NCBI GenBank assembly: GCA_041477815.1
Contig: JBGOUV010000108.1
Location: 1-17,187 of the forward strand
Source: Terriglobia bacterium
GTDB taxonomy: Bacteria > Acidobacteriota > Terriglobia > Bryobacterales > JACQDG01
Length of the DNA: 17,187 nucleotides
Direction: 5' to 3'
The translations under genes and the position numbers were made by a program. Under the pieces are notes generated by a model. It was given only the letters and a program-made list of their open reading frames with translations. It ran no database searches and was not told the DNA's origin. The first letter of the stretch is position 1; each line of letters begins with the position of its first letter. This document shows positions 2,916 to 16,495 of the stretch, one piece after another.

Positions 2916-4406
2916 TCAAGGGGATACAGGGTGGCGAAGGAACTCCAGGACTTCGATGACATGGGTAGGCGGGTCCCCGGGGCCGACCAGGCTCATTACG
3001 GCGCGGTCCAGGGTAGAGTACGGCACGAAGAGATGACGCTCCACCCGGTAGTCCCGGGTCAGGCGCCCGACCAGGTCCGGCAGGCCCGTCCCATAGCGGG
3101 TGTGGTGGACGTACCAGACCCGCGGGGGCCGATCGTGGCCGATTCGATCGAGGGCCTCCTCCCGGGCGGTATCGTCCGCCACGATCCTGACGTAGGGGAT
3201 ATTAGGCCCATGCACCGAATAGCCGGCGCTGGTCGAGAAGCGATCTACCAGGATATAGGCCGTGTCGCTCCCGGTATGCTCGTGAACCGTGCGGCTGATG
3301 GCCTCGAAGTTCACCAGGTAACCCTTGTTCAGGAAATCCTGTTTGCGGTAGTAGCTGCCGGCGCCGGCGGCCGCAACCAGGAGCAACCCGGCATAGGTAA
3401 GGGCCCCTAGGGGGCGGCGGATCTCCACGCCTCGCAGCAGGAACAGGTAGTAGAAAGGCAGTAGAAACAGGAGACGCGCCCCCACGAAGGCAAAGCTGAC
3501 CCAACTGGCGGCGATGAAGTATCCGACCGCGGCCAGCAGCAGAAATAACACGGGGGGATGAAGGCATTGGCGCCACGCGTTCCCGAGCGCCGCCCCGATG
3601 GCCGGCAGCAGGAGCAAGGCCACCACGGCCGCCCAGAGCGGGAGGGTCTCACCGAACTGGAACGCCACGAACGCATAGCCCAGCTTGAAGACGTTCTCCA
3701 CGGCCCAGTTACCGGCCACGCGGTAGGGATTCGTCGCCGCTACCAGGCCGGCGGTCTGGACCAGGGTGGCGATCCAGGGCAGGTAACCGAGGGTAATCCA
3801 CCCGAGGGTTCCCAGACTGCGCCACCGGTGGCGCCAGAGGGCCAGCGCCGTGGCGCTCGCCACCACCGCCAGACCCGGCAGATAGTGCGTGTAGAGCAGA
3901 ACCGTGGCCGCGGCGACGTAGCCGATCTGGAAGCGTCGCTTGCCGGGGTCGCGCAGCCAGTCCTGGGCCATCCGGATCGCCACCACCGCCACCAACAACT
4001 GCAGCGTGTAGGAGCGGGCCATGCGAGCGTACAGCAGCAGGCAGGGCGAGGTCACCCAGAGGATCAGGAACAGGGCCCGCCGTTCCCAGCGCAGATGTCG
4101 CAGCCAGAGGCGGTCGAACAGGACCGTGGCCGCCAGGGCCAGCAGCACCGACAGCGCCCGCGCGCGGAGCAGCCGGTTGCCCGGGAGCGGCAGCTTCCAC
4201 CACGCGCTGGTAAGGAAGTAGTAGAGCGGCGGATGCACATCCATTTGCACGGCGCGGACCATTTGCGCCGGCGGCCGGCCGGCCGTGTGCAGGGTAAAGC
4301 GCTCGTCGTCCCACAGCTGCAGCAGGTCCAGGCGGGGGGCTAGCAGCAGCGTCTGCGCGGCCAGGGCCAGCCAGAGAAGATGTCGTCTGATGAGATCCAT
4401 CCCCAT
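2916..4406 (-). CDS. Glycosyltransferase family 39 / ArnT-PMT-like membrane glycosyltransferase (496 aa) with a C-terminal soluble domain
   Basis: Multi-pass hydrophobic N-terminal ~320 aa carrying the DE...HPPLYYFL motif set typical of PMT/ArnT-type transferases (WDDERF...VHPPLYYFLTSAW). The stop is 20 nt upstream of fliW on the same strand. Confidence 0.75.
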   Translation of the reverse strand: MGMDLIRRHLLWLALAAQTLLLAPRLDLLQLWDDERFTLHTAGRPPAQMVRAVQMDVHPPLYYFLTSAWWKLPLPGNRLLRARALSVLLALAATVLFDRLWLRHLRWERRALFLILWVTSPCLLLYARMARSYTLQLLVAVVAIRMAQDWLRDPGKRRFQIGYVAAATVLLYTHYLPGLAVVASATALALWRHRWRSLGTLGWITLGYLPWIATLVQTAGLVAATNPYRVAGNWAVENVFKLGYAFVAFQFGETLPLWAAVVALLLLPAIGAALGNAWRQCLHPPVLFLLLAAVGYFIAASWVSFAFVGARLLFLLPFYYLFLLRGVEIRRPLGALTYAGLLLVAAAGAGSYYRKQDFLNKGYLVNFEAISRTVHEHTGSDTAYILVDRFSTSAGYSVHGPNIPYVRIVADDTAREEALDRIGHDRPPRVWYVHHTRYGTGLPDLVGRLTRDYRVERHLFVPYSTLDRAVMSLVGPGDPPTHVIEVLEFLRHPVSP

Positions 4407-5976: not shown

Positions 5977-6948
5977 ATGACCCGCCGCGTCCTGTTGCTG
6001 TTCCCCTGGGTGGCCTTCGGGCAGTCGCCCTCCGTGGTCTCGGTCCAGAAGATCTGGGACCAGGGGCCCCACAACGCCTTCACCGACCTGCTCCGCTTCC
6101 GCGACGAGTGGTTCTGCGCGTTCCGCGAATCGGAGGCCCACGTCGGGGGCAACGGCGGCCTGCGGGTCCTGGTGTCCGCGGACGGCGACCACTGGAAGTC
6201 CGCCGCCCTCGTTACCGAGCCCGGCGTCGATTTGCGCGACCCCAAGCTCTCCATCACCCCCGACGGCCGCTTGATGATCGTAGCCGGCGGCTCTATTTAC
6301 GTCGGGCCCGCCGGAAGCCTGTCCTACCAGGGCCGCCAATCGCGGGTCGCGTTCTCGCGCGATGGCCGCCGCTGGACCTCCCCCCGGAAGATCCTGGCCC
6401 CCGGCGACTGGCTCTGGCGCGTCACCTGGCACCAACACCGCGCCTACGGCGTGTCCTACCTGGACACGAGCACGGCACCCCGCTCCGGCGCCCTCTACAC
6501 CTCCCGAGACGGCCTGCACTATACCCGCGTAGCCGACCTCGAGGTCCCCGGCGTGTCCGAGGTCACCATTCGCTTCCTCCCGGACCACACCATGGTCGCT
6601 CTGGCCCGCCGCGAGATCGATCCCCGCCACGGCTGGATCGGCACGAGCCCTCCCCCCTATACGCAGTGGACCTGGACCGAGATCCCCCACCGCCTGGGCG
6701 GCCCCAATTTCCTCGTCTTGCCGGACGGCTCCCTGCTTGCCGCCGGCCGCTCGCATGCGCCCCCCGGCCCCACCACCGTGGTGGCCCGCATGACTACCAA
6801 GTCCTACGAGCCGGTCCTCACCCTGCCCTCCGGAGGCGATACCTCTTACCCCGGCCTGGTCTTCCGCGACGGCCTGCTCTGGATGAGCTATTACTCCTCG
6901 CACGAGGGCAAGGCTTCGATCTATCTGGCCAAGATCCGCCTGCCTTGA
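5977..6948 (+). CDS. Secreted BNR/Asp-box repeat protein, sialidase-like glycoside hydrolase (323 aa)
   Basis: N-terminal signal peptide MTRRVLLLFPWVAFGQ. There are at least three Asp-box S-x-D-x-x-x-[WY] repeats (SADGDHWK, SRDGRRWT, SRDGLHYT). It is divergent from the MFS gene and shares a ~100-nt promoter region with it. Confidence 0.7.
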   Translation: MTRRVLLLFPWVAFGQSPSVVSVQKIWDQGPHNAFTDLLRFRDEWFCAFRESEAHVGGNGGLRVLVSADGDHWKSAALVTEPGVDLRDPKLSITPDGRLMIVAGGSIYVGPAGSLSYQGRQSRVAFSRDGRRWTSPRKILAPGDWLWRVTWHQHRAYGVSYLDTSTAPRSGALYTSRDGLHYTRVADLEVPGVSEVTIRFLPDHTMVALARREIDPRHGWIGTSPPPYTQWTWTEIPHRLGGPNFLVLPDGSLLAAGRSHAPPGPTTVVARMTTKSYEPVLTLPSGGDTSYPGLVFRDGLLWMSYYSSHEGKASIYLAKIRLP

Positions 6949-6997: not shown

Positions 6998-7276
6998 TTG
7001 CCAACCGCCGTTGACATCGGAACCCTGATCACGCGGACTCGCGACGTGCGCGGGGGACGGCCGCGGATCGCCGGGACCGGCGTCACCGTAAGACGGATCG
7101 TCACCTGGTACAAGCAAGGACTGACCCCGGAACAAATCGCCGATGAAGTAGAACTATCGTTAGCGCAAGTACACGCCGCTTTAGCCTATTACCACGCCAA
7201 CCGCGACGAGATCGAGGCCGACCTGGCGGAAGAAGAGGCGGAAGTCAAGCGCTTGCTGAGCCGCCCCGAGCTTTGA
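6998..7276 (+). CDS. DUF433 family protein, the antitoxin-like partner of DUF5615 (92 aa), with a TTG start after GAGGAGGGA
   Basis: GGRPRIAGTGVTVRRIV...GLTPEQIADEV.LSLAQVHAALAYY matches the DUF433 consensus (G.P.I.GTRI.V..I....G.s.eeI...yp.Lt...i.aALaYA). A strong SD sits 4 nt before the TTG. Confidence 0.8.
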   Translation: MPTAVDIGTLITRTRDVRGGRPRIAGTGVTVRRIVTWYKQGLTPEQIADEVELSLAQVHAALAYYHANRDEIEADLAEEEAEVKRLLSRPEL

Positions 7277-7629
7277 GCTACATCCGACTCTACATCGACG
7301 AGGACTCTATGAGCCGTGCGCTCGTCCGAGTTCTGCGGGCTCGCAATGTGGACGTGATCACCGCTCGGGAGGCCGGGATGGTGGAGCGCCGAGACGAGGA
7401 GCACCTGGAGGCCGCCACCGCCGGAGGTCGGGTCTTACTCAGCTCGAATGTGGCCGATTTCTACAGAATCCACACCGCATGGCTGCAAGCAGGCAGATCC
7501 CACGCGGGCCTGATCCTGGCGCCTCAGCAACGATACTCGGTGGGCGAAAAGGCGCGCCAACTCTTGAAAGTGCTGGCCGAGAAGTCTGCCGAGGAGATCG
7601 TGGATCAGGCGTGGTTTCTCAGCCCCTGA
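7273..7629 (+). CDS. DUF5615 family protein (PIN-like, toxin-like partner of DUF433), 118 aa. The TTG start overlaps the DUF433 stop (TTGA).
   Basis: IRLYIDEDS...LRARNVDVITAREAG....DEEHLEAATAGGRVLLSSNVADF fits the DUF5615 pattern (LlDEnl....l..L...G.dv........g..D.e.l..A...gRvlvT.D.DF). The 4-nt overlap with the upstream gene is typical of TA pairs. Confidence 0.8.
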   Translation: MSYIRLYIDEDSMSRALVRVLRARNVDVITAREAGMVERRDEEHLEAATAGGRVLLSSNVADFYRIHTAWLQAGRSHAGLILAPQQRYSVGEKARQLLKVLAEKSAEEIVDQAWFLSP

Positions 7630-8195
7630 CTAGCCTTGGCCGAGGTGCTAGACTTCTTGCCTGGCGACCTTCCAGACCGAATCATATCCTCCGCCAAGTC
7701 TCGAACCAACTCCAGAACGCGCCGGCAATCGGAGCTTCTGAGGTTTGCCAACTGCTCCGGATCATGTGCTCCCATATTGCCGGTGAGCCGTGATGCGTTG
7801 GCAGCGTGATAGGACAGATCCGAAATGAGCCTCGCGCGGTGAGCAGCGTCGATTTTTTCCTTGAGACTGCCCCCAGTCATACCTGCGGTCTTCAAGAGTC
7901 CTTCGGTGAAGACGCGGGCCAGAATGAACGTCGCCGAGTGTACATCCACCTCAAAACATCGCACGGCATCATTGAGCACTCCCCTTAGACTCTTGGGCAG
8001 CCGCCCAGGAATCTTGAACTCGATCTTCCGAAGGCTCACATTAGTGACTTCCCCATCGGAGATCGTGAGCCGGAGAATCGTCCCACACTTGTCGCACTGA
8101 ATAGTGTCGTCGTACTCTCTTTTGCCAATGAGTGTCGTCGTGCCCTTGCAGCTCACACATCGAAAGGTCGGCACATTCTTCACTGCCAGAAACAA
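7605..8195 (-). CDS. Zinc-ribbon / DUF4145 domain protein (196 aa) in the lowest-GC patch of the window (~52%). The start is uncertain (TTG at 8195 or GTG at 8183/8174, none with an SD).
   Basis: N-terminal C-x2-C...C-x2-C (FRCVSCKG...QCDKCG) is followed by a helical domain matching my recollection of DUF4145 (ATFILARVFTEGLLK...KIDAAH...RLTGNMGAHD...DCRRVLELVRDLAEDM, compare A..lcR..lE..l....i..L...GN..aH). The call rests on recalled motifs. Confidence 0.55.
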   Translation of the reverse strand: MFLAVKNVPTFRCVSCKGTTTLIGKREYDDTIQCDKCGTILRLTISDGEVTNVSLRKIEFKIPGRLPKSLRGVLNDAVRCFEVDVHSATFILARVFTEGLLKTAGMTGGSLKEKIDAAHRARLISDLSYHAANASRLTGNMGAHDPEQLANLRSSDCRRVLELVRDLAEDMIRSGRSPGKKSSTSAKASQGLRNHA

Positions 8196-8524: not shown

Positions 8525-8955
8525 GGCTCTACTTCGACTCTGCGTACGTGGCCAAGTGCTACTTGAATGAGCCGGAAGGCAAGGCAGTACGGACCATCGC
8601 CCGGAGTGCCGCGGGTCTGTTCTCCTCGGCGCTCTCGATCGCCGAACTTGCTTGTGTCTTTCTTCGGCACGTGCGCGAGGGTAAAATGACCGGCATGCAG
8701 GCTGACCGTTGCCGTTCCTTCCTGCTCGAAGATGTGCAAGCCGGGACGCTGGTGCTCTTCCCCGTTTCGGAACATCTTCTGTATCGCGTAGAGTCTCTCT
8801 GCAGAACTCTTCCTTCCCAGACGTATCTGCGAGCCGGCGACGCCATCCACTTGGTATCCGCCAGAGAAGCCGGCTTCACCCAAGTATGGTCGAACGACCG
8901 CCACCTGCTGGCGGCGGCTCGTTACTTCGGACTCGAAGGCAAGTCGCTCCCATGA
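8521..8955 (+). CDS. vapC: PIN-domain toxin VapC (144 aa)
   Basis: Conserved acidic PIN positions (LYFDSAYV, LNEPEG, AGDAIHL, WSNDRHL). It is translationally coupled to the upstream antitoxin. Its TGA overlaps the ATG of the next gene (ATGA at 8952-8955). Confidence 0.85.
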   Translation: MRLYFDSAYVAKCYLNEPEGKAVRTIARSAAGLFSSALSIAELACVFLRHVREGKMTGMQADRCRSFLLEDVQAGTLVLFPVSEHLLYRVESLCRTLPSQTYLRAGDAIHLVSAREAGFTQVWSNDRHLLAAARYFGLEGKSLP

Positions 8956-10115
8956 CCCCTCCGATGACTCGCCGCGACTGTCTCCGCTCGCTGGCCGCGT
9001 GGCTGGCCGCCTCTCCCCTGGCCGCCCAGCTCGTCTCCCGCAGCCGGCACGAGCGCATTCCCGGCCTCTCGGAGTTGACCACCACCTTCGAGTTCGAGCC
9101 CCTGGCCCAGGCCAAGATGCTGCGCACGGCGTTCGACTTTCTCTCCCTGGGCGTCGATGCGGAATTCACCCTGCGCCGTAATTCCCAGGCCTTCGATTGG
9201 GTCACCCTGGTCCCGCGTCTGGGCGTGAAGGTGGCTTCCGTGGACCTCTCCACCGAGATCTTCGGCCAGAAGCTCAACTATCCGATCCTTATCGCCCCTA
9301 CCGCCGGGCATATCCAGTTCCATCCGGAAGGGGAGCTCGAAACCCATCGCGGCGCCACCCTGGCCAAGACTACCTACATCGTCAGCTCAGGCACCAGCTT
9401 TCCGATCGAGAAGGTCGCCGCCGCCGCGGCCGGACCGCTGTGGTTCCAGCTCTACGCCCGCGAGACCCCCGAGGAAAGCCGCGAGCGCGTCGAGAACGCC
9501 ATGGCCGCCGGCTGCCGCGCCGTCGCCTTCACGGTGGACACACAGTACTTCTCCCACCGCGAGCGGCTCCTCCACGACCGCAACCTCGCCGTCGCCACCG
9601 GCCGACAGCGGCAGCAGGCCGAACCGGCGCCCCTGATCTACGGCAACCGCGGCCAGAACCCCAACCTTACCTGGAAGTTTTTCACCGCCGTCAAAGCCTA
9701 CACCAAGGTCCCCCTACTGGTGAAAGGCATCCTCACCGCCGAGGACGCCCGCCTGGCCGTCGAGAACGGCGCCGACGGCATCGTGGTCTCGAATCACGGC
9801 GGGCGCTACCTCGACTACGCCCCCGCCACCATCGAGGTGCTCCCCGAGATCGTGGACGCCGCAGGGGGCCGCGTCCCGGTGCTGCTCGACAGCGGCGTCC
9901 GTCGCGGCACGGATGTCCTGAAAGCCCTGGCCCTGGGCGCCAAGGTGGTCTGCTGCGGCCGCGCCCCGCTCTGGGGACTCGGCGCGTTCGGCGCTCCCGG
10001 CGTGGCGCGCGTCCTCGACATCCTTAAGACGGAGCTTACCTTGGCCATGGCCCAGACGGGCCGCCCCAACCTCGCCTCGCTCGACCGCACCGCGGTCGCC
10101 ACCGACTTCCCATGA
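8952..10115 (+). CDS. FMN-dependent alpha-hydroxy-acid dehydrogenase/oxidase (L-lactate dehydrogenase / glycolate oxidase family) with an N-terminal twin-arginine (Tat) signal, 387 aa
   Basis: MTRRDCLRSLAAWLAASPLAAQ (RR motif followed by a hydrophobic stretch). Family motifs present are TLRRN, PILIAP, TVDTQ, VKGIL and SNHGGRYLD. The long ORF from 8709 is an in-frame run-in through vapC. The ATG at 8952 overlaps the vapC stop. Confidence 0.8.
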   Translation: MTPPMTRRDCLRSLAAWLAASPLAAQLVSRSRHERIPGLSELTTTFEFEPLAQAKMLRTAFDFLSLGVDAEFTLRRNSQAFDWVTLVPRLGVKVASVDLSTEIFGQKLNYPILIAPTAGHIQFHPEGELETHRGATLAKTTYIVSSGTSFPIEKVAAAAAGPLWFQLYARETPEESRERVENAMAAGCRAVAFTVDTQYFSHRERLLHDRNLAVATGRQRQQAEPAPLIYGNRGQNPNLTWKFFTAVKAYTKVPLLVKGILTAEDARLAVENGADGIVVSNHGGRYLDYAPATIEVLPEIVDAAGGRVPVLLDSGVRRGTDVLKALALGAKVVCCGRAPLWGLGAFGAPGVARVLDILKTELTLAMAQTGRPNLASLDRTAVATDFP

Positions 10116-11020
10116 CTCTTCCGCCCCTCAGCGAGCTGGTCAACGTTCTCGAAGTGGAGGACGCCGCCCGTGGGGTGCTCAGCCGCGCCGTCTACGACCG
10201 CATCGCGCAGGGGGAACGCGGGCGCGAGGCGTTTGACCGCATCACCTTCCGTCCCCGCATGCTGGTCGACGTCTCTCGCCTGGACCTGTCGCTCGATCTG
10301 TTCGGCCAGAAGCTCCACGCCCCGATTCTGGTGGCCCCCATGGCCCGCCACCGCCGCGTCCACGCCGAGGGCGAAGCCGCCACGGGGAGGGGCGCGGAGG
10401 CCGCCAAGACCGTGCTGGTCGTGAGCCGCGACCCCAGCGTCCCGTTTGACCAGGTCGCCTCGCGTGCCACCGCGCCACTCTGGGCGCAGGTTCCTCCCGA
10501 TCCCACCGCAGCCTCGCGCCTGGTGGCCGCCGGGGCCAAAGCCCTGGTGGTCAACGCCGGCCCGGACCTCGACTGGGACACCCTGGGCCGCCTCCGCAAG
10601 GCTGCCGGCTCAGTCCCAGTACTACTGAAGGGCGTCCTGAGCCCCGATCAGGCCGTCAGCGCCATCGAAAAGGGCGCGCAAGGTCTCATCGTCTCCAGTC
10701 ACGGCGGCAAGCTGGTCCCCAGCCTGCCTGCCACGCTCGACGTCCTGCCGCGCATTACGGAAGCTGTCCAGGGCCGCGTACCGGTTCTGGTCGACGGCGG
10801 CTTCCGCCGCGGTACCGACATTCTCAAAGCCCTCGCCCTGGGCGCCAAGGCCGTACTGGTTGGCCGCCCCGTCCTCTACGGGCTCGCCGCGTATGGCCCC
10901 GACGGCGTCCGCGCCGTCCTCGAAATGCTGCAGTCCGAGCTGGCCCTGGCCATGGGTCTGAACGGCCGGCCGAACCTGGCCGCGGTGGACCGTGCCGTGG
11001 TCAAGGTCCACCGCCGCTGA
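10112..11020 (+). CDS. Second, shorter and degenerate FMN-dependent alpha-hydroxy-acid dehydrogenase paralog (302 aa, cytoplasmic)
   Basis: Canonical N-terminus (FRPRMLVDVSRLDLSLDLFGQKLHAPILVAPMA), VLLKGVL and SSHGGK. It lacks the TVD loop segment of paralog 1 and has K in place of the substrate-binding R after HGG. Its ATG overlaps the stop of paralog 1 (ATGA at 10112-10115). Confidence 0.8.
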   Translation: MTLPPLSELVNVLEVEDAARGVLSRAVYDRIAQGERGREAFDRITFRPRMLVDVSRLDLSLDLFGQKLHAPILVAPMARHRRVHAEGEAATGRGAEAAKTVLVVSRDPSVPFDQVASRATAPLWAQVPPDPTAASRLVAAGAKALVVNAGPDLDWDTLGRLRKAAGSVPVLLKGVLSPDQAVSAIEKGAQGLIVSSHGGKLVPSLPATLDVLPRITEAVQGRVPVLVDGGFRRGTDILKALALGAKAVLVGRPVLYGLAAYGPDGVRAVLEMLQSELALAMGLNGRPNLAAVDRAVVKVHRR

Positions 11021-11026
11021 GTTGCG

Positions 11027-12154
11027 ATGCCGCACATTGCCGTAATCGGAGCGGGTGCTTGGGGGGGCTGGTCGGCGCTGCACCTGCGGCGATCCGGCGC
11101 CCAGGTAACGCTGCTGGACGCCTGGGGTCCCGGCAACGCGCGGGCCAGCTCCGGCGGCGAGACCCGCATCATCCGGGCCATTTACCCCGATCGCGTCTAC
11201 GTCGAAATGACCGTGCGCTCGTTCCAGCTCTGGGAGGAAAACGGCAAGCGCTGGAATCGAAATCTGCTGCGGCGGACGGGCTTTCTCCGCCTGGTTTCCA
11301 AAGACGACCCGCTGAACCGGTCGGCGGCCCCATTGCTGCGCGAAGCCGGAATCCCCCACGAGGAGCTCACTCCCGGCGAAGCCGCCCGCCGGTTCCCGCA
11401 AATCAACTTCCAGGGTATCGACCGGATCTTCCACGAAAAGACCGCCGGATACCTGTTTGCCCGGCGAGGGTGTGAAGCCGTGCTCGCGGGTTTCGTGGGC
11501 GAGGGCGGGACCTACCGGCAAGTGGCCGCGACGCCCGGCCCCTTGCACGGCGGCCAGATGCAGGGGCTGGCGCTTTCCGATGGATCCACCCTGGTGGCTG
11601 ATCAGTACCTGTTCGCCTGCGGCCCCTGGCTGGGCCGCCTGTTTCCGGAGGTCATCGGGAGCCGGATCAGCCCGCACCGCAAGGAAGTTTATTTCTTCGG
11701 TGTGCCGGCCGGCGACGGGTCCTTCCGCGAAGATCGCTTCCCCTGCTGGGGCGACAGCGTCGAGCACTACTATGGATGCCCGGATATCGAGTGGCGCGGG
11801 TTCAAGATCGGCGAAGACACGCGCACCGTGCCGTTCGATCCCAACTCCGGAGACCGGACGCCCACCCCCGAGGCCCTGCGGACTGTCCGCCAATTCGTCG
11901 CCTTTCGTTTTCCCGCCCTAAAGGGGGCGCCGCTGGTCGAAGCACGGGTGTGCCAGTACGAGAATACTCCGGATAGGCACTTGATCCTGGACCGGCATCC
12001 CGGAGCCGGGAATGCCTGGCTGGCGGGGGGCGGCTCGGGTCACGGCTACAAGCTGGGAGCGGCGGTGGGCGAGCGGGTGGCCCAAATGGTCCTGGGCAAG
12101 CGCGGCGTCGATCCTTTCTTCGCGCTCGCCCGACCGGCGCTGAAGGGGCTATAA
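11027..12154 (+). CDS. FAD-dependent oxidoreductase of the sarcosine-oxidase (MSOX/MTOX) / DAO family, 375 aa
   Basis: N-terminal Rossmann motif IAVIGAGAWGGWSALHL...GETRIIRAIY and C-terminal GGGSGHGYK. It starts 7 nt after the preceding gene. Confidence 0.85.
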   Translation: MPHIAVIGAGAWGGWSALHLRRSGAQVTLLDAWGPGNARASSGGETRIIRAIYPDRVYVEMTVRSFQLWEENGKRWNRNLLRRTGFLRLVSKDDPLNRSAAPLLREAGIPHEELTPGEAARRFPQINFQGIDRIFHEKTAGYLFARRGCEAVLAGFVGEGGTYRQVAATPGPLHGGQMQGLALSDGSTLVADQYLFACGPWLGRLFPEVIGSRISPHRKEVYFFGVPAGDGSFREDRFPCWGDSVEHYYGCPDIEWRGFKIGEDTRTVPFDPNSGDRTPTPEALRTVRQFVAFRFPALKGAPLVEARVCQYENTPDRHLILDRHPGAGNAWLAGGGSGHGYKLGAAVGERVAQMVLGKRGVDPFFALARPALKGL

Positions 12155-12193
12155 TCCAGAAGGGTTCCGGGTCGGGCAAGTGAAGGAGGGGGA

Positions 12194-13273
12194 ATGAGCC
12201 GCCGCTTTCTCGCGTCAGTCTGGAGCGACGTAGCGCGCGTACTCTGGCGTGCCGCGCCATGTCTTTGGCGTCACAGATCACGCGCCCTGGTAATCGCCGT
12301 CTCTTTGCTGGCGCCGGCGCCGGTCGCGGGCCAAACCGCCGCATGGACTCCACCCCTTACCGCGGACGGCCAGCCGGACCTGCAGGGAGTCTGGGTGAGC
12401 AACAGCGCGACGCCATTGGAACGGCCGAGCGGACTGGAAGGAAAAGCGTCTCTGACGGACGCGGAAGTGGCGGTGCTGAAACAGCGGGCGGAGCGGCTCT
12501 TCAAGGACGGGGCTAGTGCCTACGCCGGCGGAGATAATGTTTTCCTGGCCGCCTTGGCCGATCTCAAGCGCTACGAGGGCGTTTCGACCAGCGATTCCCT
12601 GGATATGATTGAGAGAGAGTTCAGCAACAGAACGTCTCTGATTGTAGATCCGCCCGACGGGAAGGTCCCTCCCTTGACGCCCGCCGCGCAGCAGAGGCAG
12701 GCCGCGGCTGCCGTGCCGCGCCCTCCCGCGGGACCGGAAGACCTCAGCAACGCGAACCGGTGCATCACGTTCGGCGTCCCCCGGCTGGGCGGTAACTTCG
12801 GCGCCGGCCCCTATAGTTACTACCAGATTCTGCAAAATCGCGATTACGTGGTGCTGGTCATGGAGGTGATCCACGAAGCCCGCCTGATTCCGTTGGACGG
12901 CCGCCCGCATCTGCCACCGGGCATTCGCCAGTGGAACGGGGACTCGCGAGGCCGCTGGGAGGGGAAGACCCTGGTGGTCGATACCACTAACTTCTCCCCG
13001 CGGAGCAACTTCATGGGATCCGCCGAAAACCTGCATTTAGTGGAGCGCTTCACCCGGGTCGCCCCGGACACGGTGAACTACGAGATTACGCTGGACGACC
13101 CGACTACCTGGACCAAACCGTGGACGGCCCTGGTTCCCCTGCGGCGAACCTCGGAGGACATTTATGAGTTCGCCTGCCACGAAGGGAATCCTCTCGTGAT
13201 GCAGGGCATGCTGGGTGCGGCCCGCGCGGACGAGCAGGCCGCCCAGGAAGCGGTGGCGAAGCCTGCCAAGTAA
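12194..13273 (+). CDS. Secreted hypothetical protein (359 aa) of no family I recognise
   Basis: Strong SD GAAGGAGGGGG 5 nt before the ATG. A signal peptide (RHRSRALVIAVSLLAPAPVAGQ) follows a long n-region, and the coding periodicity is clean. It is flanked downstream by a relic of the FAD-oxidoreductase gene. Confidence 0.65.
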   Translation: MSRRFLASVWSDVARVLWRAAPCLWRHRSRALVIAVSLLAPAPVAGQTAAWTPPLTADGQPDLQGVWVSNSATPLERPSGLEGKASLTDAEVAVLKQRAERLFKDGASAYAGGDNVFLAALADLKRYEGVSTSDSLDMIEREFSNRTSLIVDPPDGKVPPLTPAAQQRQAAAAVPRPPAGPEDLSNANRCITFGVPRLGGNFGAGPYSYYQILQNRDYVVLVMEVIHEARLIPLDGRPHLPPGIRQWNGDSRGRWEGKTLVVDTTNFSPRSNFMGSAENLHLVERFTRVAPDTVNYEITLDDPTTWTKPWTALVPLRRTSEDIYEFACHEGNPLVMQGMLGAARADEQAAQEAVAKPAK

Positions 13274-13291
13274 ATCGACGTCTCCCCCACC

Positions 13292-13393
13292 AGAAGCTCC
13301 CGCGATTTCCAGCGTAGGGACCGGATCTTCCACGCAAGGACCGCCGGATGCTTGTTGGCCCGGCGAGGGTGTAAAGCTGTACCGGCAGGTTGC
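13292..13393 (+). pseudogene. Decayed ~100-nt relic of the FAD-oxidoreductase gene. It corresponds to 11395..11527, has a ~33-nt internal deletion, and is ~86% identical over the 76-nt ungapped core.
   Basis: Aligned by eye. Perfect shared runs are gaccggatcttccacg (11420-11435 = 13318-13333), gaccgccggat and gcccggcgagggtgt. The relic still translates in frame to FQRRDRIFHARTAGCLLARRGC against FQGIDRIFHEKTAGYLFARRGC. Confidence 0.6.
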
Positions 13394-13670
13394 CTCTACT
13401 CGCGCTGATACACCGGAACCTCGCAACCCACGGGCAGCCGCACCCGCCCGATCTCGAAGTAGGGCAGCCGGTGCTCCGCCGGCGCCTGCGCCACTTGGGG
13501 ATCCCGCTGATCCAGCGCTCTGGACACGTTCGGAACCTGGGGCTCTTGCCATCCGCGGGGGAGCCAGGTGGCCCTGGATCCAAACCGCATTGGCCCCCGG
13601 AGGCCGGGGATCCACAGGAGCAGCTTGACCCGCACTCCAGCAATTGTACGCGCTACACTATGAGCGCGCC

Positions 13671-14498
13671 ATGAGAGTCGTTGTTTGTTTCCTGACCTCC
13701 CTCGCCGCCTTCGCCGGCGACGCCTCCTTCACCATCGCCGGACTCCAGATGATGCCCGAGCCCTGGAACAAGCAGGCGAACTTCGCCAAGCTGGAGCGCT
13801 ACGCCCGCCAGGCCGCCGCCCAGGGCGCCCAGGTGGTGCTCACTCCCGAAGGATTCCTCGAAGGCTACGTGGGCAACCGCGGCCGCACCAAAGACCTCAC
13901 CTGGGAGAAATACGTCGCCGCCGGCGAGCGCCTGGAGGGGCCGCTGCTGACCCGCGTCCGCGACCTCGCCCGGGAGCTGCAGATCTACCTGCTGGTGGGC
14001 TTTGCCGAGCTGCGTGACGACCGCATGTACAACTCGGCGGTGATCTTCTCCCCCAGCGGCGCCGTGCTCACCCGCTATTCCAAGACCCATACCGCCGACG
14101 ATGAGCCCCTCAACACCAAGGGCACGGCTTTCCCGGTGGTCTCGACGCCCTTGGGCCGCTGGGGCACGCTGATCTGCATGGACCGCCAGCTTCCGGAGAC
14201 CTCCCGCCTCCTGGCGCTCCAAGGCGCCCAGGTCATCCTGGTCCCAGCCTATGGGATGTACGGTGAGACTAATGACATCCTGATGCGCGTCCGCGCCTAT
14301 GAGAACGGCGTCTACGTAGCCTTCGTCCACCCCAACCGCTGTCTCTTCATCGACCCCAGCGGCAAGATCCTGGCCCAGAACCAGGGCGACGGCGATCAGA
14401 TCGTAACCACCACCATCCGGCTCGATAACAACCGTCTCGGCAATGGCCCCATCCGGCACCGCCGGCCGGAGCTCTATGGGGACGTCGCGAAACACTAA
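13671..14498 (+). CDS. Secreted carbon-nitrogen hydrolase (nitrilase superfamily, E-K-C triad), ~275 aa. The ATG at 13671 (MRVVVCFLTSLAAFAG signal peptide) is preferred over the TTG at 13644.
   Basis: Catalytic-triad contexts VVLTPEGF (E), TRYSKTHT (K) and TLICMDRQ (C). An N-terminal signal peptide is present. Confidence 0.85.
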   Translation: MRVVVCFLTSLAAFAGDASFTIAGLQMMPEPWNKQANFAKLERYARQAAAQGAQVVLTPEGFLEGYVGNRGRTKDLTWEKYVAAGERLEGPLLTRVRDLARELQIYLLVGFAELRDDRMYNSAVIFSPSGAVLTRYSKTHTADDEPLNTKGTAFPVVSTPLGRWGTLICMDRQLPETSRLLALQGAQVILVPAYGMYGETNDILMRVRAYENGVYVAFVHPNRCLFIDPSGKILAQNQGDGDQIVTTTIRLDNNRLGNGPIRHRRPELYGDVAKH

Positions 14499-14521: not shown

Positions 14522-16495
14522 GTGATATTCAACCTCGAAGTATTGATGCTCGCCGCGGCCGCCGCGGTCGTTGTCGCGGTCCTTCTCCTCAACTCCATCT
14601 ACAGTATCGGTCCCACCGAGGTGGGACTGGTCCGCAAGCGTTTCGGAGCCAACCTGCCCGGCGATAACCCGCTGGCGTTTCGCGGGGAGGCGGGCTACCA
14701 GGCGGAAATGCTCATGCCCGGCCTGCGCTTCAAACTGTGCCTGGTTTTTGCCGTCACCAAGCATCCCTGGGTACAGGTGCCCGCCGGACAGATCGGCGTG
14801 GTCATCGCTCAAGTCGGCCAGGCGCTGCCCATTGGCGCCAAGTCGGCGGTGTACAAGCCGGAGTTCGGAAATTTCACGGACCTGAAAGTCTTCGTCGAGA
14901 AGGGCGGACAGAAGGGTGTACAGCGGCCGGTCTTGTCGCCCGGCACCATGGCTCCCATCCATCCCGCCGCTTTCCTGGTCATCACCCAGCCGGAGGTTTT
15001 CGGCGTTCCCGTTTCCTCCGACCTGAGAACACTAGCTCAAAAGAAGCGCCAGCTCACCTACGAGGCCTTCGGACTGGGGGAAAAGCAACTCCAGGTAACC
15101 CGTATCTCTCCGCACCCCTCCGAGGCCGGCAGAGTAGTGGATATGATAGGCATCGTCACCACCCTGGAGGGCGAGCCTTTGCCCGGCGGCGACATTGCCA
15201 GCCGGCTCGGCAGCTTCGCCGACATCGACGCGCTGGAGGGGCGAGCCGGCGCGGACACGGCCACCGACGCCAGACTCATCGAGACCATACTGGGCAACCA
15301 AAACGACAAGCACCGCGCCTACCAGGACTTTCAGAAGTTCCTGGAGCTCGGCGGCAAGATCGGGCTGCAGCACGATCCCTTGCTGTACGGCGCCTACAAC
15401 CTCAACCCCTTCCTGGTGCGGGTCGAGGAGGTGCCCATGCTGGTGGTCGAGCAGGGCCAGGTGGCGGTCGTCAAGGCCTACTCCGGTCTCCCGACGCAAG
15501 ATACGTCAGGCGCCGAGTTCAAATTCGGCAGCCTGGTGCGGCCCGGCCATCGCGGTGTGTGGCAGGAACCGCTGCGCACGGGCAAATATCCCATTAACCC
15601 GCGCTGCTACCAGGCCGTAATCGTACCCACTTTCATCATTACGCTCAACTGGGCGGACGTCGTCTCCCAGGCTCACAATCTGGATGCGCAGCTCAAGCAG
15701 GTGGAGGCCAAGAGCAGCGAAGGCTTCCACTTCGCCATCGATCTGCAGGTGCAGATTCACATTCCGGACACCCAGGCTCCGTATGTCATCTCCATGGTCG
15801 GAAGCGTGGCCAACCTGGTGAACGAGGTCCTGCAGGCGGCCGTCGGCAACCATTTCCGCAACAAGCTGCAGAGCATGCCGGCGGTAAAATTCATTGCCAG
15901 CCGCGAGATGGTGCAGCAAGGCGCGTTCGAGTACGTCAAGGAGGAGCTGGCCAAATACCGGGTGGAGACGCGAGGTGTGTATATCCAGGCGGTGGTGCTG
16001 CCGGAGCAGTTGGTGCAAGTCCTGACGCAACGGGAGATCGCCAATCAAGAAATAGAAACCTACAAGATGCAGAAGGCCGCGCAGGACCAGCGCACCGAAA
16101 CCGAGAAGGCCAAGGGCACGGCCGACATGCAGGCGGATCTCGCCAAGTCGCAGGTGGGAGTGGAGATCCAAAACAACCGCACCGCCGCCAGAAAGATGGA
16201 AGCCCAGGGCGAGGCGACATTTATCGAGGAGACCGGCGCGGCGCAGGGCGCGCAGGTCCGCTCCGTGGGACTGGCCCGAGCCGAGGCCTACGCCCGCCAG
16301 GTGGCGGCTCTGGGGGCCAACGCCACCGCGCTGGTGAACGCGATCGAAGCGCTCTCGAAAAGCAACGTTCCCTTCATGCCCAACACGCTGGTCATGGGCG
16401 GCGCCGAGGGCGGCACGGTGGGAGGCGTCCTGGCGCTGTTGATGCGGCAGCTCGAGGCGGGGCTGCCCCAGAAGCCGCTGCCGCCCGGTCCTTAG
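14522..16495 (+). CDS. Flotillin/SPFH (band-7) family membrane protein (YqiK-like, 657 aa)
   Basis: An N-terminal TM segment is followed by an SPFH opening EVGLVRKRFG. A long Ala/Glu/Gln-rich coiled-coil flotillin region follows (AAQDQRTETEKAKGTADMQADLAKSQVGVEIQ...). GTG at 14522 sits after GAGGAG, with an alternative ATG at 14546. Confidence 0.8.
   Translation: MIFNLEVLMLAAAAAVVVAVLLLNSIYSIGPTEVGLVRKRFGANLPGDNPLAFRGEAGYQAEMLMPGLRFKLCLVFAVTKHPWVQVPAGQIGVVIAQVGQALPIGAKSAVYKPEFGNFTDLKVFVEKGGQKGVQRPVLSPGTMAPIHPAAFLVITQPEVFGVPVSSDLRTLAQKKRQLTYEAFGLGEKQLQVTRISPHPSEAGRVVDMIGIVTTLEGEPLPGGDIASRLGSFADIDALEGRAGADTATDARLIETILGNQNDKHRAYQDFQKFLELGGKIGLQHDPLLYGAYNLNPFLVRVEEVPMLVVEQGQVAVVKAYSGLPTQDTSGAEFKFGSLVRPGHRGVWQEPLRTGKYPINPRCYQAVIVPTFIITLNWADVVSQAHNLDAQLKQVEAKSSEGFHFAIDLQVQIHIPDTQAPYVISMVGSVANLVNEVLQAAVGNHFRNKLQSMPAVKFIASREMVQQGAFEYVKEELAKYRVETRGVYIQAVVLPEQLVQVLTQREIANQEIETYKMQKAAQDQRTETEKAKGTADMQADLAKSQVGVEIQNNRTAARKMEAQGEATFIEETGAAQGAQVRSVGLARAEAYARQVAALGANATALVNAIEALSKSNVPFMPNTLVMGGAEGGTVGGVLALLMRQLEAGLPQKPLPPGP

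Follow-up and report, generated by a model that had tools for sequence, protein, structure and literature searches.

How did an internal piece of a gene for a FAD-dependent amine oxidase (DAO) come to lie, in degraded form, behind a neighbouring gene 1.9 kb away, and does it have a role there? The question arises at a locus of an uncultured soil acidobacterium (Terriglobia bacterium, assembly GCA_041477815.1, contig JBGOUV010000108.1), of which a stretch of 17,187 nucleotides, hereafter called the window, was analyzed. DAO is followed here by a gene for a putative secreted protein (SEC) and by a carbon-nitrogen hydrolase gene, and the DAO-like remnant, referred to below as the relic, is situated between the latter two (Table 1). 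A previous interpretation made from the letters of the window alone (the sequence-only reading) had seen in it an internal piece of the adjacent DAO gene that had decayed, and a trace of duplication or insertion; both descriptions held. The explanation preferred here, with moderate confidence, is that the relic is a non-functional, neutrally decaying DAO remnant with which a composite, lineage-specific 388-nt insertion begins on its left side. The new element is the comparison with relatives, which revealed that this segment is absent from three loci with the same gene order.

Table 1. Features of the window discussed in the text.
Feature	Position	Strand	Description
DAO	11027..12154	+	Intact parent gene, 375-aa FAD-dependent amine oxidase; Pfam DAO PF01266 full-length, E 2.9e-39
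DAO segment present in relic	11352..11532	+	Codons 109-169 of 375; three collinear blocks, offsets 1931, 1899, 1867
SEC	12194..13273	+	359-aa putative secreted protein; uncharacterised family, expanded in Acidobacteriota
388-nt segment	13281..13668	.	Window-specific relative to the closest relatives; 2-nt boundary ambiguity (CG at both ends)
DAO relic	13283..13399	+	Blocks 13283-13299, 13303-13379, 13380-13399; a net 32 nt missing at each of two points compared with DAO
Piece B	13400..13668	-	269 nt; open in one minus-strand frame throughout, coding-like composition
orf79	13396-13635	-	Mechanical ORF, 79 aa; stop codon within relic
Hydrolase	13671..14498	+	Carbon-nitrogen hydrolase; Pfam CN_hydrolase, E 2.9e-47

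The parent gene and the extent of the relic

Profile and PDB comparisons showed the DAO protein to be similar to monomeric sarcosine oxidase and N-methyltryptophan oxidase. Its top NCBIfam matches were N-methyl-L-tryptophan oxidase and soxA_mon, each under its cut-off, and its top PDB matches were sarcosine oxidases (E 2e-39). The orthologues at the related loci L081 and L102 have the same length and an amino acid identity of 93-94%.

When positions 13274-13420 were compared with the window by blastn, a relic core (13307-13391) aligned without gaps to 11408-11492 of DAO with 71 of 85 positions identical (E 7e-22); the runner-up had an E-value of about 1. A repeat finder returned the same pair as an 85-nt direct repeat of 84%, the second longest direct repeat of the window, and a tblastn search with the DAO protein matched residues 127-155 to 13304-13390 (69% identity, E = 1.7e-7). 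Two shorter blocks flank the core. The left block, TCCCCCACCAGAAGCTC, lies beyond one net 32-nt loss and agrees with 11352-11368 at 15 of 17 positions, and the right block, TACCGGCAGGTTGCCTCTAC, lies past the other 32-nt gap and agrees with 11513-11532 at 16 of 20; for either block, the observed match level was attained in none of 1000 shuffles. In total, the relic measures 117 nt. In the masked window, tblastn with DAO as the protein query recovered the known stretch only, the remaining matches being low-complexity noise, and a loose-gap local alignment that extended the relic into piece B was long but spurious and was discarded.

These data bear on several statements of the sequence-only reading. 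An identity of approximately 86% over a 76-nt ungapped core was reproduced (65/76, 86%), as were perfect runs of 16, 15, and 11 nt. The match is real, but it had been placed at 13292..13393, beginning 19 nt after the SEC stop codon, whereas it actually spans 13283-13399 and begins 10 nt after that codon. The deletion of about 33 nt comprises 32 nt and hence shifts the frame. Likewise, the in-frame translation FQRRDRIFHARTAGCLLARRGC is correct but carries no weight, because frame-breaking net losses of this size flank the core on each side. The expectation that the match would be better than chance was borne out by the blastn and shuffling statistics. The window has a G+C content of 64%, and a fortuitous likeness in GC-rich DNA might be considered, as might an assembly chimera, but both are extremely unlikely given the E-value, the shuffling result for the flanking blocks, and the fact that a collapsed or mis-joined repeat does not give 84% identity with indels.

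Substitution pattern, donor, and age

Of 114 aligned positions, 18 differ between the relic and DAO, and these differences are split 7/4/7 over the three codon positions, compared to 17/13/50 and 18/15/73 between the DAO orthologues. The dN of the relic is 0.16 versus 0.03-0.04 for the orthologues, and its dN/dS, calculated from the small sample of 114 sites, ranges from 0.6 to 1.3 and thus is about 1. The even spread of the differences over codon positions, together with this ratio, indicates that the relic is decaying neutrally, and its substitutions show no sign of past purifying selection. The relic fits a pseudogene fragment in its homology to a parent gene, its disabling lesions, its relaxed selection, and the lack of conservation in relatives.

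Ten sites set L102 alone or L081 alone apart from the other two orthologues; at these sites the relic agrees with the two that are alike, and the resident DAO gene lineage is supported as its probable donor. The relic's own branch has a Jukes-Cantor (JC) length of about 0.17, against a neutral distance to L102 of about 0.11-0.15 per lineage (dS/2). The copy therefore has roughly the age of the split from L102 and may even be older; if it is, the segment would have been lost in the relatives.

Comparison with related loci

Three related loci (L083, L084, and L102) share with the window the order FMN dehydrogenase, DAO, SEC, and CN-hydrolase at 90-93% DNA identity, and in all of them positions 13281-13668 are missing and SEC adjoins the hydrolase. 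They have one common junction (...GCCAGTAGGTCAACG|CCATGAGAG...), which is covered by a single relative lineage only; the window reads ...GCCAAGTAAATCGACG[388 nt]CCATGAGAG... at this site. Position 13280 is the last that aligns with the relatives, the relic starts 2 nt inside the left edge of the segment, and the L083 and L102 alignments pick up again at window position 13667 with 92-93% identity. The hydrolase starts 397 nt after the SEC stop codon in the window and 9 nt after the corresponding position in the relatives. A more distant SEC homologue (L085) is followed by a short spacer (TCGGCGCGCC..ATG) that resembles the window without the segment. L085, L086, L105, and the P0125 and P0127 contigs were tried as outgroups for the junction; their downstream genes differ, and the indel therefore was not polarised by them. 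The segment ends have only a 2-nt CG in common and no microhomology is evident at the DAO breakpoints, but the age of the event makes such traces unreliable to read.

The relatives also bear on the proposal that a second DAO paralogue, functional at one time, was interrupted by insertion of SEC and that its downstream half persists as the relic. DAO-like sequence does occur on either side of SEC, and SEC homologues are found in varied genomic contexts. However, the relatives possess DAO, SEC, and hydrolase without any relic; the relic continues into non-DAO DNA instead of DAO codons 170 onward; the upstream DAO is complete and hence is not the other half; and substitutions without a trace of purifying selection argue against a long-lived paralogue. 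This scenario is highly improbable.

SEC had no match in Pfam, NCBIfam, or PDB, and an exact look-up of the window protein gave no record, but more than 540 relatives were found in genome contigs. Its orthologues in L081, L083, and L102 have about 90% DNA identity, and in the L083/L102 lineage SEC itself is decaying. In other Acidobacteriota, 80 SEC loci, all of them paralogue-level or distant, lacked both DAO and the hydrolase in their vicinity, and neither SEC nor DAO was found near the hydrolase among hydrolase loci of 83% DNA identity or less. The DAO-SEC-hydrolase arrangement thus appears to be young and confined to close relatives, in agreement with the earlier suggestion that the three genes became neighbours recently. 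The view of this spot as recombination-active is likewise consistent with the SEC flanks, which are rich in indels. Separately, a second extra stretch of 60 nt was observed in the signal-peptide region of SEC; a local template for it was sought, and none was found.

Piece B

The remainder of the segment, piece B, has a G+C content by codon position of 0.76/0.49/0.84, resembling real genes in the window, and a codon-usage score of +0.20 per codon (sense mean 0.36, antisense mean 0.04). Searches of the window and of the retrieved loci with blastn (7-nt words), tblastx, and nhmmer detected nothing that matched its DNA, including no similarity of 13400-13668 to the DAO and SEC stretch 11533-13282. 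Neither Pfam nor NCBIfam yielded a match, a word-based protein search gave no candidates, and no homologue was found upstream of the other hydrolase loci. When 1.8 billion representatives were searched exhaustively with HMMER, two TPR-repeat proteins were retrieved (E about 5e-6), in which the same 34-46 residues scored against several repeats with 33-41% identity, so that this match is a weak lead. Based on its composition and the TPR-like match, piece B resembles the interior of some other gene, inversely oriented, and the segment may accordingly be read as two gene fragments.

This composition of the segment bears on another rival, namely that 11352-13282, which comprises SEC and the 3' two-thirds of DAO, was duplicated in tandem as a unit of 1931 nt and that deletions then removed nearly all of the second copy. 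The direct orientation of the relic and its several small deletions agree with this scenario, and so does the left junction, which has the form of an end-of-unit/start-of-unit join: position 13283 corresponds to gene position 11352 and directly follows the sequence shared with the relatives. When the two copies of a tandem duplication recombine and the duplication collapses, the original sequence is restored exactly, which would account for the clean, insert-free allele of the relatives. A tandem duplication predicts, however, that the 269 nt of piece B are about 84% identical to DAO codons 170-375 or to SEC, and blastn, tblastx, and nhmmer found no such match; an additional, unrelated insertion would be needed. 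Segmental duplication followed by deletion, as had been suggested, thus fits the left junction but not the 269 nt that share nothing with DAO or SEC, and is unlikely as the origin of the segment.

Tests for mobility and function

No convincing terminal inverted repeats were found at the segment ends; a single 10-nt inverted pair (9/10 complementary) that brackets piece B was matched by chance pairs in the scan. Further copies of the segment were found neither in the window nor in the fetched loci, and the ORFs scanned, a subset of all ORFs, contained no transposase, integrase, or reverse-transcriptase domain. A MITE or insertion sequence was rejected on the grounds that the segment has no inverted repeats at its ends, no other copies in the window or the retrieved loci, and no transposase domain in the scanned ORFs. 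A structured or regulatory RNA was also rejected, as the segment matched no Rfam family at E-values up to 1 and its fold z-scores (+0.68 and -0.09) indicated no structure in excess of chance. No promoter-like or terminator-like sites were found within the segment.

A functional relic, acting either as a minus-strand antisense RNA against the DAO mRNA or as a new promoter or leader of the hydrolase, is very unlikely. In its favor, a minus-strand ORF of coding-like composition ends within the relic, the hydrolase has been uncoupled from SEC by 397 nt, and 117 nt would be 84% complementary to the DAO message. Against it stand the absence from the closest relatives, the lack of an Rfam family, excess structure, or a promoter-like site, and the neutral substitutions plus deletions. 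In the antisense version, a transcript would start beside the hydrolase promoter region, cover orf79, and run into the relic; that it serves as a lineage-specific trans-antisense regulator linking transcription of the hydrolase region to DAO expression is a most improbable, speculative idea.

Origin of the segment

According to the preferred explanation, a 388-nt composite segment entered the short SEC-hydrolase spacer in the window lineage and joined two unrelated gene fragments, a DAO piece in direct and 269 nt in inverse orientation. A single illegitimate event just past the SEC stop codon, such as the repair of a break or a stalled replication fork, may have copied or captured ectopic DNA as 'filler' or by template switching, and since then the DAO piece would have gained about 16% substitutions and the two net 32-nt losses. 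For the inserted DNA, 117 nt match DAO 1.9 kb away, and for the other 269 nt the searches found no source. Beyond what the alignments show directly, we infer that the segment was gained here rather than deleted from the relatives, that one event created it, and that it is without function.

With the opposite polarity, the segment would be ancestral, a scar left when a rearrangement first united SEC and the hydrolase, with piece B as the remains of a former divergent neighbour of the hydrolase, and would have been deleted later in the L083/L102 lineage. The youth of the gene order, which is restricted to close relatives, is in line with this possibility, as are an age of the relic at least equal to that of the split, the decay of SEC in the L083/L102 lineage, and the well-known deletional bias of bacteria (PMC2817411). 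On the other hand, such a deletion would have to begin within 2 nt of the left edge of the relic and also leave the normal 9-nt spacer before the hydrolase ATG, L085 has a comparable short spacer, and upstream of the other hydrolase loci a homologue of piece B was not found. An ancestral segment is unlikely.

Comparison with known systems

Like intergenic pseudogene fragments of bacteria, the relic is a truncated, frame-broken, neutral copy in non-coding DNA. Most described remnants are genes that died in place or failed horizontal transfers, whereas the relic copies part of the interior of a gene at an ectopic site, and its parent survives intact at a distance of 1.9 kb. In Salmonella and E. 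coli, the join points of tandem duplications have a direct orientation, a kb-scale distance, and an end-of-unit/start-of-unit junction. The relic resembles them in its orientation, its distance, and the type of its left junction, but the rest of the unit is absent and 269 nt of unrelated DNA are found instead. For such junctions, a detection tool is described in a 2026 preprint (doi 10.64898/2026.05.22.727201). Truncated, frame-broken, and neutral gene copies that shrink by deletions are described in surveys of prokaryotic pseudogenes and of deletional bias (PMC522871, PMC2817411, PMC3164680).

Templated or filler insertions are similar to the 388-nt segment in being short and in combining, in mixed orientation, pieces that were copied partly from close by and partly from other places; complex insertions of the MMBIR/FoSTeS type are reported mostly from eukaryotes (e.g. 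PMC5120786, PMC7954356). The event in the window differs in being old, about 16% diverged, and junction microhomology is past reading. The template and variable repeats of diversity-generating retroelements (DGRs) share with the relic and its parent the presence of two copies of about 100 nt with approximately 85% identity, one genic and one non-coding nearby. In the window, however, the repeat is located mid-gene and not at the 3' end, and a DGR-like repeat pair was rejected because the relic has indels and substitutions of all kinds that are not restricted to adenines of one copy.

Implications

The relic looks like an ordinary pseudogene scar left by a past DNA-copying accident and not like a working element, and its biological importance is small; it is a further pseudogene scar in an uncultured acidobacterium. 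For annotation, ORFs overlapping 13281-13668 should not be called genes without more evidence. The segment serves as a dated marker: approximately 0.4 kb of patchwork DNA would have been gained past SEC near the split, at a dS of about 0.25, and SEC and the hydrolase, before that closely spaced and probably co-transcribed, came to lie 397 nt apart. A catalogue of many such composite insertions could reveal the pathways of illegitimate recombination that operate in the Acidobacteriota.

Gene neighbourhood and extent of the relic

Every gene around the relic, a decayed partial copy of the amine oxidase gene DAO, lies on the forward strand of the window, which has a G + C content of 64%. Intergenic distances in this region are 7–40 nt, the sole exception being the 397-nt spacer between SEC, encoding a putative secreted protein, and the hydrolase gene. 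Monomeric sarcosine oxidases were the top PDB matches of the DAO protein. Upstream, the two paralogous FMN-dependent dehydrogenase genes overlap by 4 nt and share a 124-nt stretch (9822–9945 and 10727–10850) with 74% identity; in the first, the FMN_dh domain is preceded by about 130 residues, and the second, with 302 aa, is below the 350-position length of the Pfam model.

Coordinates of features in the window
Feature	Position	Strand	Remarks
Large ORFs	237–806, 1940–2524, 2916–4406, 5977–6948		no Pfam match
DUF5615 ORF	7273–7629	+	convergent with next, ~25-nt overlap
DUF4145 ORF	7605–8195	-	
FMN-dependent dehydrogenase, first of tandem paralogue pair	8709–10115	+	
FMN-dependent dehydrogenase, second of pair	10112–11020	+	
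DAO, FAD-dependent amine oxidase, 375 aa	11027–12154	+	Pfam DAO over full length
SEC, 359 aa	12194–13273	+	no match in Pfam, NCBIfam or PDB
Window-specific segment	13281–13668		388 nt
Relic	13283–13399		gene 11352–11532 (codons 109–169)
Relic block 1	13283–13299		gene 11352–11368, 15/17 identical, offset 1931
Relic block 2	13303–13379		offset 1899
Relic block 3	13380–13399		gene 11513–11532, 16/20 identical, offset 1867
Piece B, remainder of segment	13400–13668		
79-codon ORF in open frame of piece B	13396–13635	-	
Carbon-nitrogen hydrolase	13671 (ATG)–14498	+	
SPFH-domain protein	14522–16495	+	

A sequence-only reading had noticed a copy of the middle of DAO downstream of SEC, and this homology proved to be real. 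The repeat finder reported an 85-nt direct repeat within the window (11408–11492 and 13307–13391; 84% identity), blastn aligned the relic core to DAO without gaps at 71 of 85 identical positions (E = 7e-22) with all other matches in the window at E ~1 or worse, and the DAO protein matched the translated stretch with 69% identity (E = 1.7e-7). The match picks up again in block 3 past a gap of 32 nt, the deletion that had been recognized earlier but sized at about 33 nt; at the protein level this block reads GEGVKLYRQVAST versus GEGGTYRQVAAT, with the frame shifted. Local alignment revealed block 1 beyond another net loss of 32 nt, and the score of either flanking block was reached by none of 1000 shuffles of each flank. 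The three collinear blocks thus define a relic that spans more than the repeat first described. In each of the two gaps the net loss is exactly 32 nt, although the first is not one clean deletion, 39 nt of the gene being replaced by 7 nt; the equal size is probably a coincidence.

The junction in close relatives

A protein with 93% identity to DAO (P0001) is encoded on contig L081, which carries the FMN dehydrogenase, DAO and SEC at 91% DNA identity and stops within SEC. The 139 C-terminal residues of SEC, used as a query, retrieved P0121 (90% identity), and on its contigs, L083 (JGI) and L084 (ENA), SEC directly adjoins the hydrolase gene. A metagenome scan with the hydrolase yielded L102, where FMN dehydrogenase, DAO, SEC and hydrolase share one contig at 90–92% identity and the SEC–hydrolase junction equals that of L083 and L084. 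The sequence-only reading had suggested comparing the locus in related strains; L102 has the same gene order, and the segment with the relic is absent. The junction is ...GCCAGTAGGTCAACG|CCATGAGAG... in all three contigs and ...GCCAAGTAAATCGACG[13281-13668]CCATGAGAG... in the window, the intervening 388 nt being specific to the latter. Their boundary is placed to within 2 nt on either side because CG occurs at both segment ends, and the relic starts 2 nt inside the left edge.

In the distant SEC homologues L085 (83%), L086 (78%) and L105 (79%), similarity to the window is gone by 13278–13280 or earlier and the genes downstream of SEC differ from those of the window, hydrolase homologues at 83% identity or less have other genes upstream, and neither DAO nor the hydrolase was found near SEC at any of the 80 loci on genome contigs. 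Only a narrow clade thus has the order DAO–SEC–hydrolase.

SEC is intact in the window, unlike the copies in L083 (1–993) and L084 (1–913), apparently broken by a frameshift so that the gene caller makes two genes, and in L102 (1930–2680), where about 350 nt equivalent to window positions 12323–12674 are missing. Compared with L081, the window has, within 12155–12320, about 20 nt more in the DAO–SEC spacer and about 60 nt extra in the signal-peptide coding region, followed by 12 further nt; the 60-nt stretch is present in L102 too, and a search for a local template found none. A 12-nt in-frame extra stretch at the C-terminus (13243–13254) distinguishes the window from L083.

Despite the lack of database matches, SEC is a member of a large family, uncharacterised and putatively secreted, that numbers more than 540 relatives in genomes of Acidobacteriota. 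No SEC relative falls outside this phylum (Bryobacterales, Vicinamibacterales, Terriglobia), which places the source of the window in it as well. Copies often lie several side by side (e.g., L043, L055, L069 and L075 among loci L001–L080). In L085 (region 1464–1835), an SEC homologue of 83% DNA identity precedes 180 non-coding nt and an ORF whose sequence by itself looks like a ParB-type N-terminal domain, and family members thus occur in widely differing genomic contexts.

Decay, age and polarity

The relic differs from DAO at 18 of 114 aligned positions, distributed 7/4/7 across codon positions versus 17/13/50 and 18/15/73 in the orthologue comparisons. Its dN is 0.16, compared with 0.03–0.04 among orthologues, and dN/dS, a check also suggested earlier, is 0.6–1.3, varying with where the core is cut. 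The relic is neutrally decaying. Its 22-codon in-frame reading is indeed open, but since both 32-nt losses break the frame this has no significance. The proposal that SEC had been inserted into a second DAO paralogue is contradicted by this neutral substitution pattern and by the loci of the relatives.

Over the 114 positions, the relic is identical to the window gene at 96, to L081 at 93 and to L102 at 91. Among the 14 sites at which the three orthologous DAO genes disagree, it agrees with two of them at 10, lacks a window-only change at one and is unlike all at three; it carries no window-only state. The donor thus fits the resident DAO lineage, with nearly all change on the relic's own branch. 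The Jukes–Cantor length of this branch (~0.17) matches or slightly exceeds dS/2 (0.11–0.15), dS of the window being 0.22–0.30 to the L102 lineage and 0.31 to L081. By these distances the copy is about as old as the split between the window and its relatives, and the clock alone is compatible with either side. Insertion in the window's lineage appears favoured, because the break in the relatives falls at the edge of the relic, because they keep a normal 9-nt spacer, and because the short spacer of L085 (TCGGCGCGCC..ATG) resembles the window minus the segment. The segment may instead have been lost in the relatives; an ancestral scar is considered unlikely.

Composite structure and origin of the segment

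Piece B showed no similarity to DAO, SEC, the rest of the window or the loci then retrieved (blastn, tblastx, nhmmer). One minus-strand frame is open over its entire length, and the 79-codon ORF in it resembles real genes in its GC content by codon position (0.76/0.49/0.84) and has a codon-usage score of +0.20 per codon (sense average 0.36, antisense average 0.04); its stop codon lies inside block 3 and was made by relic-specific substitutions. The ORF had no match in Pfam or NCBIfam, a word-based protein search with piece B found nothing, and an exhaustive HMMER search with the ORF retrieved only two large TPR-repeat proteins, a STAND NTPase and a protein kinase (E ~5e-6), through weak, repeated matches of a single 34–46-residue stretch at 33–41% identity. 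Piece B is read as an inverted internal fragment of some other gene, its source probably elsewhere in a genome outside the collections searched, and the TPR matches may hint at the type of parent gene.

The segment had no Rfam match, it showed no gain in folding energy over shuffled sequences (z = +0.68 and -0.09), and no promoter-like or terminator-like sites were seen inside it. Inverted repeats were not seen at its ends; one 10-nt inverted pair (9/10) brackets piece B. There was no second copy of the segment in the window or the loci then retrieved, and the ORFs scanned contained no transposase, integrase or reverse-transcriptase domains.

The segmental duplication proposed by the sequence-only reading, here a tandem duplication of 11352–13282, would yield the left junction as seen, yet DAO- or SEC-derived DNA would then be expected at piece B and is not there, which leaves it distinctly unlikely. 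A single composite illegitimate insertion followed by neutral decay requires the fewest extra events and is given an even chance. In this model, part of the DAO interior and a fragment of a different gene, the latter inverted, would have been joined in one event, and the product would then have decayed neutrally; serial template switching could account for the join, as could the capture of DNA during break repair. The probability left over from these two models and the ancestral scar is divided among minor rivals.

The finding is real and was well described from the start, and the type of object is ordinary. To it are added the true extent of the relic, its site within a 388-nt indel missing in close relatives, the composite nature of this indel and the rejection of an insertion into a second DAO paralogue.
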